From assembly GCF_003018255.1 (NCBI RefSeq), contig NZ_CP027440.1: a DNA stretch of 64,000 nucleotides; one strand, 5' to 3'. Within the stretch, counting starts at the first letter, position 1. Each line of letters begins with the position of its first letter. Position numbers and translations under genes: made by a program. The notes under the pieces were generated by a model. The model searched no databases. It had not been told where the DNA came from and saw only the letters and a list, made by a program, of their open reading frames with translations. Shown in pieces: positions 37,853 through 41,137 of this stretch. The stretch comes from Escherichia coli. Lineage in GTDB: Bacteria; Pseudomonadota; Gammaproteobacteria; Enterobacterales; Enterobacteriaceae.

Positions 37853-38321
37853 CAGGGGGAGAAGATTTTCTCCTGTCCTGATGATTTTGGGGCGCTGGAA
37901 AGATATTGTGCTGTGAAGTGTTAAATCCCTCACAATTCAGTAAGTTGACAGTTGCCTGTCAGACTGAGCATTTGTTAAAAAAATTTCGCATGGTGAATCC
38001 CCCTGTGCGGAGGGGCGACTGGTGAACGGTATGATCTCTTTGATGATCGTAAGCGAGAATACGCGGGTTTGGTGTCACCGGGCTGAACTCACCGGGAGGC
38101 ACCCGGCACCATGCTCATGGTGATACAGAAATGCGGCTTCAGCCCCTCTCCGGAGGGGCTTTCTTATGGACAAAAAAAGCCCGCGCTGGGAGACGCGGGC
38201 GGCAAGGAATAAACAATAAAACGTGAAGTAATACTTCAACTGGCGAATAATACCCGACAGTAATCACTCTGCGCAATAGCGTGGCCTTTTTCGAATTGCG
38301 GGCTGTAGTCTCCCTTCTGCC

Positions 38322-38485
38322 GGGTGTCCTGGTTGCAGATTTCTTCATGGGGTAGGGTTCGGCAGTTAAAGCAGCGATGGTGCTGGGGCGTCGTGCAACT
38401 GGCGTTGAGCTGGATACCGGGCGTTTTGAACAGACTGCGCAGGAAATCAGGGATGTATTTAGCGGGAGCGGTTTGCAGAAGTAAT
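38322..38485 (+). pseudogene. duplicated 3' fragment of the DNA methyltransferase gene, with in-frame stop
   Basis: Near-copy of 36780-36945 (CCGGGTGTCCTGGTTGCAGATTTCTTCATGGGGTAGGG...); TAG interrupts the reading frame. Confidence 0.7.
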
Positions 38486-38547
38486 CTCCCAAAATGCCAT
38501 TTTTGGAATATACTGGTATTAAGTCTTTTTGCTCAGGTTAATTCAAA

Positions 38548-39273
38548 ATGGATGTTGCCTGCTCTGTGGTCCTGATTCGCTATCCGATAGATATTTTTCT
38601 TGAAAAAGAAAAAGTTTCACTCGATGCCGGAAGTGTTATGCTTGTTGCCAGAAATATAAGAGGGCTTTTCTGTGCTTATGCCGACAGAGTGAAAATGGCA
38701 GATATAAGTAACAGCGTCGTCAATCAGTATCTGGAAAGGGAGTGTGAACTGACGGAGTATACACCGACAAAAATGCCTCTTTATTTGATGTCTGATATTT
38801 ACAATACGGAACTGGCGGAGGCTTTAATAACCCAGCATAGTGAATCCAGTGATACTTTGAAGGATTTCTCTGTTATAACCGCATTTTCATGTATCTCCTT
38901 ATTTGCAACAGACAGACGTCTGCCATTATTTTTGTCCGGTGCTGTAAATAATATCAGCTGTAAAGTAAGGGCTATAATTCAGACCGACATATCGGCAGGC
39001 TGGATGCTTGGTGTGATTGCATTACAATTGCATATGAGCGAAAGCTTGTTGAAGCGAAAACTTAAGGATGAAGGTTATAGCTTTAGTCGGTTGTTGCTGG
39101 AGGAGCGAATGCGTGTTGCTGTTAATCTTGTATGTTTCCAGCGAGAGTGTGGACAAGCGATAGCGGAAAAATGTGGTTACTCAAGTAAGTCCTACTTCAT
39201 TTCTGTATTTCACCAGTATTATGGTGCACCACCTGAGAGCTATGCATATTTGCAGAAAGCAGACGTTATCTGA
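38548..39273 (+). CDS. AraC-family transcriptional regulator
   Basis: 241 aa; C-terminal AraC-type HTH (...QAIAEKCGYSSKSYFISVFHQYYGAPPESY); low-GC. Confidence 0.75.
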   Translation: MDVACSVVLIRYPIDIFLEKEKVSLDAGSVMLVARNIRGLFCAYADRVKMADISNSVVNQYLERECELTEYTPTKMPLYLMSDIYNTELAEALITQHSESSDTLKDFSVITAFSCISLFATDRRLPLFLSGAVNNISCKVRAIIQTDISAGWMLGVIALQLHMSESLLKRKLKDEGYSFSRLLLEERMRVAVNLVCFQRECGQAIAEKCGYSSKSYFISVFHQYYGAPPESYAYLQKADVI

Positions 39274-39362
39274 TGTTTTTTCATCAGGCATATATTGATT
39301 GACTGTATTAGATATAGTCTGAATGTGTTCAGCATAAAAAGTTATAATCATTTGGTGTTTGC

Positions 39363-39641
39363 GTGAATATTGATGAGAAAATCAGATGTAGCCAACTGTT
39401 ACAGCGTATTGAAGCCGTCAATGTGGAACGAACAAAGGTCTTCAGTCGTCTGACAGTTTTATTTTGTACCCCTGATCGACGTTCAGGTCAGGAGATGGTT
39501 CTTCTGGATGTAGATGCACTTCGGAACGTCTGTGAGGAGTTCACCGCGGCTAATTCGGAGTTACTGAGTCTTGTTCAGGAGTACAACAGAATTGCAGGTA
39601 GTAACGGTTTTGATGAAATCAAAATTATATCCCGTGGATAA
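39363..39641 (+). CDS. hypothetical small protein downstream of AraC-family gene
   Basis: 92 aa ORF with GTG start; no recognised motif. Confidence 0.3.
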   Translation: MNIDEKIRCSQLLQRIEAVNVERTKVFSRLTVLFCTPDRRSGQEMVLLDVDALRNVCEEFTAANSELLSLVQEYNRIAGSNGFDEIKIISRG

Positions 39642-41137
39642 AACATATCCTGTATATTTATGTTGTTACATACAGGCGCTTTTAGTATCTGCCGCACGGC
39701 AGTTGTACTTCAGAATAAGATGCTTTTGTGACTGGTGGTGTTGTATCTGGGGTTAGCCAGTAGGCAGGTTCAGAGAGTCCGGTGGTAATTATGTGTATGC
39801 AGTGGTTGTTGCTGTACCGTGGGCAAGTTCTGGAACTGGCTTCGTCCATTGTAGATGATTGTTAGCTGGATATCAGTTACCTCATGGAAATGTTAAATGA
39901 CTCACAATTCGGTTGATGGGCTATTGTCTGATCGATGGAAGTCTTGTAAAAACGAGCCAGCATAGTGAATCCCCCTGTGCGGAGGGGCGTCTGACATGGT
40001 CTCCATAGCGATGGTCACAATACGCAGATTCAGTAGTCAGGCTGAATCTACCGGGAGGCACCCGGCACTATGCTGCTTATGGTGTATACATAGCGATCGG
40101 CCCCTCTCCGGAGGGGCTTTTTTTGTGCGGGAAAAGGCTGTGTTGTTAAGTGTTAAATTCCTCACAGTTCGGATGGTTGATGCTTGCCTGTCTGAGGGGG
40201 AGTTGTTAAAAAAGTTCTGCATGGTGAATCCCCCTGTGCGGAGGGGCGACTGGTGTGATTTGCATCTTTTCTGTTGTAGGCAATGCAAACGCGGGTTCAG
40301 GGACGCCAGACTGGACTCACCGGGAGGCACCCGGCACCATGTTCATGATGATACAGATACGCAGTGTCAGCCCCTCTCCTGAGGGGCTTTTTTATGCAGG
40401 AAAAACGCTGTGTTGTGAAATGTTAAATTCCTCACAGTTCAGATGGTTGATGCTTGCCTGTCTGAGGGGGAGTTGTTAAAAAAGTTCTGCATGGTGAATC
40501 CCCCTGAGCGGAGGGGCATATCAGCGCAGGTGTTTCTACTCTATCCTTTCTGTGCGGGTTCAGGTGCTGATACTGAACTCACCGGGAGGCACCCGGCATC
40601 ATGCATATGGTTAACAGACACGTAGCGAAGCCCCTCTCCGGAGGGGCTTTTTTATGCAGGGAAAAGGCTGTGTTGTGAAATGTTAAATTCCTCACAATTC
40701 ATGAGGTTGATGATTGTCTGATTGATGAGGAGTTTGTTAAAAAAAACGGGCATGGTGAATCCCCCTGTGCGGAGGGGTGATATCGTATCATTTCCTGTGT
40801 GGCCGACTGATATCACGGACATTTGTTCACCGGGAGGCACCCGGCACCATGCAGTATACAGAGATTAGGCATACATCCAGGCTCCTCATCGCAGGAGCCT
40901 TTTTACATGTAAAAAAAAACCGCTCCTGGGAAGAGCGGTTGGCAAGGAAGCAAGGAATAAATAACAAAACGTGAAGTAATTTATTCAGCACCCTAATAAT
41001 ACCTTAGAGTAATCACCTTGCGCAACTGTAAGGGCGTATTTCTTTTTTGCGGGCTGTTTTTCTGTGTGACTTTTGTGTTTCCGGTGGTCAGCCCGTGCCT
41101 TCTCTGACTCAGAACATTATCCCGGCCGGGAGGATTC

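Follow-up and report, generated by a model that had tools for sequence, protein, structure and literature searches.

What is encoded by the repeated stretches that precede the lysis genes of a lambdoid Escherichia coli prophage, and why are there several of them side by side? The DNA in question is a window of 64,000 nt from E. coli (contig NZ_CP027440.1 of assembly GCF_003018255.1), from whose first letter all positions below are counted. It contains five repeat units of about 235-270 bp, one solitary (unit 1, u1) and four arranged head-to-tail (u2-u5), and the stretch that holds them carries no annotation from the RefSeq pipeline. All five proved to be members of a known, curated family of prophage small RNAs (sRNAs), STnc100, and not a new kind of element. 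Our account builds on this family membership, on selection for the plus-strand RNA, on the promoter and terminator anatomy, on the mosaic make-up of the units and on the recurrence of such arrays elsewhere. We consider it likely, with a probability of about 0.7, that the array consists of stacked STnc100 sRNA genes of the Hfq type, each transcribed independently, whose terminators also shield the lysis genes.

The repeated organization was recovered by independent methods. A repeat finder picked out five occurrences of a 39-nt core segment, at 38083, 40042, 40311, 40573 and 40821, with start-to-start distances of 1959, 269, 262 and 248 nt (repeat family D4), and Tandem Repeats Finder reported a period-270 array at 40100-40777 with a score of 845. 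In a MAFFT alignment of the five units (A1), the same elements followed one another in identical order in every unit, with variable stretches between them: a box (TGTTAAAT-NN-CTCACA-N-TTC), a first conserved hairpin (P2, CCCCCTG(T/A)GCGGAGGGG), a second conserved hairpin (P6, CCGGGAGGCACCCGG) and a GC-rich hairpin with a T-run that closes the unit. The box was off by one or two bases in u1 (TCC to CCC) and u2 (TC to GA), and u2 was the most divergent of the five. Unit limits (Table 1) were set from the motif positions and a terminator scan. An original prediction, made from the letters of the window, had described five copies, at 37905-38165 and 39885-40915, with this ordered box, two hairpins and terminator, and the repeat finder, Tandem Repeats Finder, the alignment and Rfam agree with it on both counts. 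Its statement that no reading frame is conserved was also borne out: the unit spacings are not multiples of 3, and the open reading frames (ORFs) that start in the units differ in position, frame and length. One candidate for a conserved small ORF, with a Shine-Dalgarno-like GGAGG in P6 and the AUG of CACCAUGC, was rejected, as this AUG is replaced by CACCACA in most homologues.

The Rfam/Infernal search that had been proposed as a check matched all five units to the covariance model RF02076 (STnc100) at 119.5-172.4 bits, against a gathering score of 47. The E-values of 1e-25 to 4e-39 exclude chance, and every match spanned model positions 1-206, with none of the five truncated. The consensus structure comprises a multi-branched core of ~125 nt, in which a closing stem (P1) is combined with the invariant hairpins P2 and P6 and with variable arms. 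An RNAalifold consensus on 10 sequences gave the STnc100 structure, with its closing stem, two short hairpins, an arm and the terminator, and the minimum free energy (MFE) fold of u1 was the same as the consensus (z = -2.98). The linkers that separate core and terminator were mostly unpaired in the consensus structure and partly paired in individual MFE folds.

We then asked which of these features are under selection, using a covariance model built from 10 units of this window and of Shiga toxin (Stx) phages (alignment A3). The model was run on 88 loci from IMG/VR, GTDB genomes and reference phages, and the best 150 of the 291 matches, representing 92 distinct sequences, were used; an nhmmer search with the five units had broken divergent homologues into fragments and was replaced by a motif count together with the covariance model. 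Among the 92 distinct homologues, standard pairs filled 95.7% of the cells, versus 76.6% in column shuffles and 42-49% when the partners were slid by 1-3 columns. Both sides had changed in 22 of the 33 pairs, and cells with changes on both sides numbered 590, versus 170 in the shuffles and 25-73 after sliding. Covariation was seen in all pairs of the P5 arm, in all terminator pairs and in seven of the eight P1 pairs; within the window itself, P1 of u2 carries a compensatory G-C to A-U change (GCATAGTG / CACTATGC, A3 columns 38/161). P2 (CCCCCUnnGCGGnGGGG) and P6 were invariant in sequence across this set. Most homologues had been gathered via the P6 sequence, so that the invariance of P6 is partly one of ascertainment, which that of P2 is not. 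A kissing contact between the P2 loop GUGC and GCAC of P6 was considered and discarded, as the GU of the P2 loop varies (GU, AA, GA, AU, CA) and P6 is constant. Finally, G·U cells outnumbered A·C cells by 198 to 18 (11 to 1), and therefore selection acts on the plus-strand RNA. These comparisons support the plus-strand RNA structure as the selected entity, in line with the earlier proposal that structure rather than protein is conserved, for which covariation across homologues had been named as a check.

The family has characterized members. STnc100 is the EcOnc27 RNA of prophage Sp5 in E. coli O157:H7 Sakai (Tree et al. 2014, PMC4104026), which forms the plus-strand half of a convergent pair of Hfq-binding sRNAs located right after stx2B; it gave northern bands of ~235 and 247 nt, the 247-nt form being less stable without Hfq (PMC4104026). 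The same RNA is known as sRNA103 in strain EDL933 (PMC7873438; PMC12711010), where 11 STnc100 copies are annotated, all 11 with RNA-seq reads and one with northern confirmation (PMC5331693). When the published Sakai coordinates were moved by 142 to fit the current record (L081), a shift that we checked with AsxR, the Hfq peak of EcOnc27 from crosslinking and analysis of cDNA (CRAC) spanned the 3' strand of P1, the linker and the terminator. The five units resemble EcOnc27/sRNA103 in their full-length model match, in their site between cargo (stx or other) and nanS-p, in a shared core and linker-terminator layout, and in having a convergent minus-strand sRNA partner. They differ in number and variety: the described copies occur one per prophage, whereas here 1 + 4 tandem units occupy one late region, arms and linkers vary by unit, and the prophage lacks stx.

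More distant relatives are PasD1 and PasD2 of enteropathogenic E. coli (EPEC) E2348/69 (EcOnc13 in Sakai), whose structural homology to STnc100 is stated in a 2026 preprint by Zhu, Shabalina and Storz. Our covariance model found both PasD genes, at 34.5 bits, and the Rfam model stayed below threshold on them. Their chimeras in RIL-seq (sequencing of RNA partners after ligation) fall in the 3' ~50 nt, with a seed, UGUGAG, just before the terminator. The PasD genes share with the units, where both are only predicted, a promoter directly before GCAUGGUGAAUCC and a seed segment just before the terminator, and they likewise sit between Q and the esterase/holin genes. Unlike the units, they lack the P6 sequence and are dispersed rather than tandem, according to the preprint, and their seed UGUGAG was not found in the linkers of the five units.

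Inspection of the unit flanks suggests that each unit is a gene with sigma-70-like promoter elements and its own intrinsic terminator with a U-tail. Ahead of the core in every unit lies a putative promoter, Pb, composed of TTG(C/T)CT, 17-18 nt, (TGT)TAAAAA, 6-7 nt and then GCAUGG; the TTGyCT and TGTTAAAA blocks are invariant in all five units, and the 17-18 nt between them vary. The Pb -10 element stops 6-7 nt ahead of P1, and the predicted start coincides with the 5' end of PasD2 as defined by RNA-seq. In 51 non-redundant homologues from several genera, the best sigma-70-like site ended 4-10 nt before P1 in 41%, versus 10% of shuffles, and in other genera the sites at the Pb position are often canonical TTGAC(A/C/G)-N17. 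A second candidate, Pa, is the box itself: TGnTAAAT reads as an extended -10, with a candidate start inside CTCACA, at CACAAUUC, and the pattern of a -10 followed by TCACA returns with other sequence in distant homologues. On Sp5 (L081, our own count), the predicted RNA would be ~227 nt from the Pa start and 171 nt from the Pb start; the published PasD lengths of 172/173 nt fit a Pb start. As judged from sequence only, promoter-like elements thus lie in the correct geometry at each unit, with two alternative starts and weak hexamers. Terminator-like sites numbered 22 over 33500-41300, versus 7.4 +/- 3.1 expected, and one closes each unit.

This anatomy bears on what the units had been proposed to be. 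Independent sRNA genes, one of the options in the original prediction, agree with the Rfam family membership and with the single-copy homologues, which are discrete, Hfq-bound transcripts in lysogens (PMC4104026, PMC5331693). Attenuator modules, another option, are not supported: four of the five units do not lead into a coding sequence, u1-u4 having another unit or non-coding DNA behind them, ~230 nt holding a convergent sRNA gene separate u5 from nanS-p, the units have promoter-like elements of their own, and the consensus fold is a single structure whose terminator lacks the alternative pairing typical of attenuators.

Segment-wise identities showed how the copies are related to each other and to other phages. 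The P1-P2 and P6-P1' segments were 90-100% identical in every comparison, and the ~25-nt linkers, which have only a loose (U/A)ACAGA motif in common, were 16-77% identical between units. In u1, the internal arms match those of VT1-Sakai at 100% identity, and the linker is 100% identical to that of an Stx2a phage and only 16% identical to that of VT1-Sakai. Units 3 and 4 have identical leaders, and the u3 linker is 77% identical to the u1 linker. Compared with the first unit of phage phiSTEC1589-Stx1c, u4 is 72% identical in the variable segment and 100% in P5, and its linker is unique, no linker compared being more than 48% identical. The u5 linker and terminator are 89% and 84% identical to those of Sp5 EcOnc27, and its internal arms are shortened and unique. 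The units are therefore mosaics rather than fresh duplicates, with core and terminator as the cross-over points and with arms and linkers moving independently of each other.

Side-by-side sRNA paralogues have precedents. PrrF1/2, OmrA/B and Qrr1-5, cited in the 2026 preprint, are neighbouring paralogues with a common scaffold, each with its own promoter and terminator. LhrC1-5 of Listeria is a further tandemly duplicated sRNA gene family. These families usually keep the seed and vary elsewhere, whereas the STnc100 array varies most in the presumed seed segment and keeps its core constant, and its copies are mosaics from different phages, not local duplicates.

Tandem arrays are a minority arrangement of this family, in which a unit normally stands alone. 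One unit is present in reference Stx2a and Stx1 phages and two in one Stx1c phage, and among the 80 single-hairpin matches listed in viral contigs (at least 120 matches) none showed the tandem spacing of 240-270 nt. Two P6 hairpins at this spacing were present in 74 IMG/VR contigs which, grouped by spacing, comprised 33 arrays of two units, 33 of three and six of four. A scan of one genome per species also revealed tandem arrays in Superficieibacter, Pantoea (two species), Leclercia (two genomes) and Enterobacter. In some IMG/VR prophages (L012, L020, L022, L033, L060, L067 and L068), P6 recurs every 117-150 nt instead of ~255 nt, a period that suggests arrays of truncated mini-units keeping little beyond the core. 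Of 5426 complete E. coli genomes, 77 carried the whole 3.8-kb arrangement at a coverage of 80% or more, and most of these were STEC (E. coli that make Shiga toxin) negative for LEE (locus of enterocyte effacement), for example O91:H21 and O113:H21; one strain with the array is O91:H21 FWSEC0008 (NZ_CP031906.1, 2680930-2684730). Sequence with some similarity was present in 3111 of the 5426 (~57%), at up to 11 places per genome. Near-identical relatives of the prophage carry 1+4, 1+3 or 1+2 units, and copy number therefore changes readily. For a 145-nt junction query against E. coli genomes, only matches of at least 90% identity (84 records) were interpretable; those of 71-77% were set aside as tandem counts, being indistinguishable from a unit preceded by some other terminator. 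No paper describing tandem STnc100 arrays was found in the literature searched. What is new here is modest and lies in how diverged copies are stacked, the family itself being known already.

The surroundings of the array are those of the late region of a lambdoid, Stx-type prophage without stx, and all five units sit between Q with its candidate late promoter and the lysis genes (Table 1). Q is followed by a membrane-protein ORF and then by a DNA methylase gene (35885-36943). The product of cargo gene 1 matches NCBIfam TIGR02794 at 75.9 bits over residues 43-141, the TolA C-terminal domain, and belongs to phrog_5772; such a phage-borne TolA-domain mimic could disturb Tol-dependent uptake. The AraC-family regulator of the second cargo scored 119.8 bits for the NCBIfam YdeO model and 92.6 bits for GadX, both below the cut-offs, and is presumably akin to the Psr proteins, prophage-borne regulators of the acid-resistance island in enterohaemorrhagic E. 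coli (EHEC). The duplicated methylase end implies that two cargo slots, each consisting of a methylase end, cargo and an sRNA dyad, have been placed one behind the other, two prophages having probably recombined. The layout of Stx phages leads to the same conclusion: their order is methylase, tRNAs, stx, one STnc100 unit, convergent sRNA and nanS-p, with nanS-p in the same position in Stx2a, Stx1 and Stx1c phages, so that the present prophage corresponds to two serial cargo slots, each closed by an sRNA dyad, the second dyad having three additional units on the plus strand. Eight or more Sakai prophages have been described with such a dyad in the interval from cargo to nanS-p (PMC4104026, PMC7873438). 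Upstream of the Q region, the prophage also carries a sok antitoxin RNA (RF01794, 117.7 bits) at 31548-31722, beside a Hok/Gef-family gene.

Table 1. Positions of the STnc100 units, their parts and neighbouring features in the window.
Feature	Position	Strand	Evidence or remark
Unit 1 (complete STnc100-type sRNA gene)	37919-38166	+	motifs, terminator scan, Rfam
Unit 1, box	37919-37938	+	
Unit 1, Pb -35	37952-37957	+	
Unit 1, Pb -10	37976-37981	+	
Unit 1, P1 5' strand	37988-37995	+	
Unit 1, P2	37999-38015	+	
Unit 1, P6	38092-38106	+	
Unit 1, P1 3' strand	38107-38114	+	
Unit 1, terminator stem	38141-38160	+	terminator scan; then T-run
Unit 2, first of the tandem four	39891-40125	+	terminator 40099-40118
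Unit 3	40151-40394	+	terminator 40369-40388
Unit 4	40421-40654	+	
Unit 5	40681-40905	+	terminator 40879-40900
Rfam match, u1	37959-38171	+	172.4 bits
Rfam match, u2	39931-40126	+	119.5 bits
Rfam match, u3	40190-40399	+	139.7 bits
Rfam match, u4	40460-40659	+	141.2 bits
Rfam match, u5	40721-40910	+	141.3 bits
Convergent sRNA, EcOnc08/21/42 type	38172-38290 (right end approximate)	-	terminator 38200-38179 and T-run, abuts that of unit 1
Second convergent sRNA-like gene	40912-41035 (approximate)	-	terminator 40940-40918 and T-run, abuts that of unit 5
Antiterminator Q	33725-34396	+	RefSeq annotation
Promoter-like site TTGCAA-17-TATATT, candidate late promoter PR' (assignment inferred)	34404-34432	+	promoter scan
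Two tRNAs	36984-37145		
Cargo gene 1, lipoprotein-like, 142 aa, RefSeq 'tolA'	37424-37852	+	directly upstream of unit 1
Methylase-gene 3' remnant, RefSeq methyltransferase pseudogene	38320-38471	+	direct repeat D3, 82% identity to 36788-36939
YdeO/GadX-like AraC-family regulator, cargo 2	38548-39273	+	phrog_1450
92-aa ORF, cargo 2	39363-39641	+	phrog_2873; directly upstream of units 2-5
NanS-p-type sialate O-acetylesterase, RefSeq 'SASA family carbohydrate esterase'	41138-43102	+	holin and lysis genes next

Both slots end in a convergent pair. The antisense probe that was published for EcOnc08/21/42 agrees with 38246-38280 (+) at all but one base, and 38172-38290 is homologous to the stretch that separates the STnc100 unit from nanS-p in Stx2a and Stx1 phages (alignment A2). 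Direct repeats D6, D7, D9 and D10 tie 40912-41035 to 38172-38276, in agreement with A2, and terminators stand back to back at 38141-38200 and at 40879-40940, so that the dyad arrangement of genes and terminators occurs twice. A minus-strand promoter-like site lies at 41144-41116, and the second convergent sRNA may start in or near the nanS-p start codon; if started there, it may be antisense to the nanS-p leader.

The original prediction had also linked the units to prophage-encoded anti-sRNAs, and this link did not survive comparison with AgvB and AsxR. The corresponding models (RF02702, RF02703) gave no Rfam match at E<=1 on either strand of 37800-41200. AgvB and AsxR are ~55-nt RNAs with a conserved 3' 42 nt (GUAUCUCAUGC...GCCCGAACCC..CGGGC), from which the minus-strand terminators found here, GCCCGCGUCUCCCAGCGCGGGC and AACCGCUCUUCCCAGGAGCGGUU, differ; with the published sequences absent and no Rfam match, we rejected the idea that the units, or their partners on the minus strand, are AgvB or AsxR. 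The likeness to the AgvB/AsxR dyads (Tree et al. 2014) is one of position, the minus-strand partners sitting where AsxR and AgvB sit in Sp5 and Sp10, whereas within the dyad the repeat units take the plus-strand place and not that of the anti-sRNA, and the minus-strand partners are of the EcOnc08/21/42 type.

A sixth, divergent STnc100 core lies elsewhere in the window, on the minus strand at 24444-24661 (core 24509-24634). It scored 33 bits with the Rfam model (E = 3e-5), short of the 47-bit threshold, and our own model gave 25.7 bits; its fold has the family architecture (z = -3.98), and the two differences of its P6 from the consensus are compensatory (CCUGG...CCAGG). This copy stands directly upstream of dicB (ORF 24288-24476, minus; NCBIfam 102 bits, cut-off 100); its core ends ~30 nt before the dicB start codon and has no terminator of its own. 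It is preceded by a shortened DicF-like hairpin (UUUUCUGGUGAUUCGGCGGAAAUGGAUAUCCGCCAUUUUU) at 24654-24693 (minus), which has the 5' UUUCUGGUGA in common with K-12 DicF, lacks the middle of DicF and gave no match to the Rfam DicF model. The Qin prophage of K-12 (AB1157, record L209) has a core in the same setting, at 704-913 of that record (34.4 bits, sub-threshold), between DicF (655-706, Rfam 76.7 bits) and dicB (881-1069); there too the core stops ~30 nt short of the dicB start codon and lacks a terminator. In an alignment of the K-12 and window copies (A5), the flanks were invariant, the changes in P1 were correlated, and the arm segment was unrelated. The dicF-dicB region of K-12 thus shares a sub-threshold STnc100 core with the array, as does the stretch upstream of dicB in the window, and differs from the array in having neither a terminator nor a promoter of its own and in apparently forming a dicB leader; the copy in the window likewise looks like a dicB leader. 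No description of an STnc100-like element at dicF-dicB was found in the literature searched.

How might the array work? That each unit is expressed, that its RNA depends on Hfq, that the linker is the seed, that the terminators insulate and that Q permits read-through are points we infer from the homologues and the lambdoid paradigm. On the preferred reading, u1 would close the first cargo slot and the four tandem units the second, within the late operon, and each unit RNA would be made in the lysogen, by analogy with the characterized homologues. Hfq would bind it at the linker and terminator; the units have the sequence trait of Hfq-type sRNAs, namely, a Rho-independent terminator with a 3' U-tail after a single-stranded segment, and Hfq binding and target pairing are known for homologues from CRAC of EcOnc27 (PMC4104026) and RIL-seq of PasD. 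The linker would base-pair with host or prophage mRNAs, and the shared core would serve as a stable body, so that five linkers on one scaffold would make five regulators of different specificity. In cis, the five terminators would block transcription from cargo promoters from reaching the holin and lysis genes, and after induction Q-modified RNA polymerase would pass them. The array itself probably grew and diversified via homologous recombination at the conserved core and terminator.

Several points weigh against this reading. The EcOnc27 bands of 235/247 nt favour a start at Pa or slightly upstream, not at P1. The Pb -10, TAAAAA, is without the usual final T, Pa has no -35, and the hexamers are weak; a generic promoter scan did not flag the unit sites and found no enrichment (12 sites versus 11.5 expected). 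Some units may be silent or occluded by the transcription of their neighbours. The effects of sRNA103 overexpression on fimZ and espA are the sole effects reported (PMC7873438, PMC12711010). The covariation alignment was fitted to the model itself. Moreover, the strict invariance of P2 and P6 exceeds what a passive scaffold needs, and the occurrence of the core as a terminator-less dicB leader hints at a core function beyond scaffold and seed.

Other explanations account for parts of the evidence. The units could be mainly a stack of terminators, an insulator in cis that Q overrides, with the RNAs as by-products and the copies raising the efficiency of termination. A strong hairpin with a T-run does end each unit, the units are placed exactly between cargo and nanS-p/holin and downstream of Q, the minus-strand terminator abutting the last unit of each slot makes termination bidirectional, and StxS provides a precedent for terminated late-operon by-products. 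The intrinsic terminators bounding morons in lambdoid late operons (Juhala et al. 2000, as cited in Tree et al. 2014) likewise stand at the 3' edge of cargo in an antiterminated operon; the terminators here differ in that each is part of a ~230-nt structured RNA gene, repeated four times. However, a terminator needs ~30 nt, which leaves unexplained both a core of ~125 nt with compensatory changes across genera and the conserved promoter geometry before the units, and the homologues bind Hfq and form chimeras with many mRNAs. We regard this explanation as unlikely. The serial terminators read through by Q that the original prediction had envisaged are nevertheless compatible with the sRNA genes as a second role in cis, with the lambdoid paradigm as their sole basis. 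Somewhat less probable again is that the four/five-way-junction core is the functional entity, binding a protein or ligand or acting as a processing signal in cis, with linker and terminator as accessories and the array multiplying the signal in the late transcript. P2 and P6 remain invariant while the neighbouring helices covary, and the core occurs without a terminator before dicB in both the window and K-12 with correlated changes in P1, as this idea would have it; yet in most family members a predicted promoter is positioned for a start at P1 and a terminator is present as well, as befits genes more than leaders, the P2-P6 loop contact was tested and found unsupported, no partner is known, and the dicB copies fall below the Rfam threshold. 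Neither of these two explanations is exclusive of the sRNA-gene model, of which insulation is already a part.

Two further ideas are much harder to reconcile with the data. If the units were repeats at the DNA level, recombination scars or boundary homology for the swapping of cargo with no function as RNA, one would understand why they flank cargo slots, why the methylase remnant marks slots joined by recombination, why phages have exchanged unit segments, with the breaks falling in the conserved core, and why copy number differs among near-identical prophages. Recombination of this kind is real and explains the origin of the array, but not its retained structure: compensatory changes keep the pairing, the excess of G·U over A·C would be expected only where one of the strands is read as RNA, and the homologues are abundant transcripts. 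We therefore consider scars, as put forward in the original prediction, very improbable. We give least credence to the idea that the units are GcvB mimics, with a GcvB-like seed in the GU-rich box between them (UGUGUUGUG), or that CUCACA of the box makes them sponges of PasD. UGUUGUG, which exactly complements CACAACA, the GcvB target core as published, is indeed present upstream of u4 and u5 (40411-40417 and 40671-40677), and CUCACA, the target motif of PasD1/2, occurs in all five boxes. However, the likeness to the GcvB seed is not above chance: the 9-mer TGTGTTGTG has two matches versus 0.73 expected, 22 of 100 shuffles reach two, and none was found in u1, u2 or u3. It also lies upstream of both predicted starts, 19-25 nt from the nearer one, and the box fits an extended -10 (TGnTAAAT) with the start inside CTCACA.

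The dicB-side copies permit a broader reading, which we put forward tentatively and as a minority view: the STnc100 core may be an unrecognized functional RNA domain in two guises, the body of late-region sRNAs and the leader of dicB, K-12 included, with the array as a rack of cassettes. If this is true, recombination at the constant core would swap arms and seed linkers, producing new regulators combinatorially and giving a lysogen several specificities.

Few prophage sRNAs of pathogenic E. coli are as widespread as those of the STnc100/EcOnc27 type. Variants overlapping the STnc100 copy beside stx have recently been linked to the outcome of haemolytic uraemic syndrome (HUS) (PMC12711010). 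Two of these, +90 (T<->C) and +103 (T deletion) after stx2B (PMC12711010), map to ~1935-1951 of L081 by our own approximate count, and by that count they would lie in or next to the predicted extended -10 of EcOnc27 Pb and the segment between -10 and start. Against this background, the locus is a natural experiment, with five diverged copies in 3 kb that combine a constant core with unit-specific arms and linkers. It provides a gene model, consisting of promoter, core, linker and terminator, for a family that pipelines leave unannotated, and the prediction that the linker sets specificity. It also shows arms and linkers shuffled on a constant core, in an arrangement that recurs across genera, and its link to dicF-dicB of K-12 opens the core to study in a laboratory strain.

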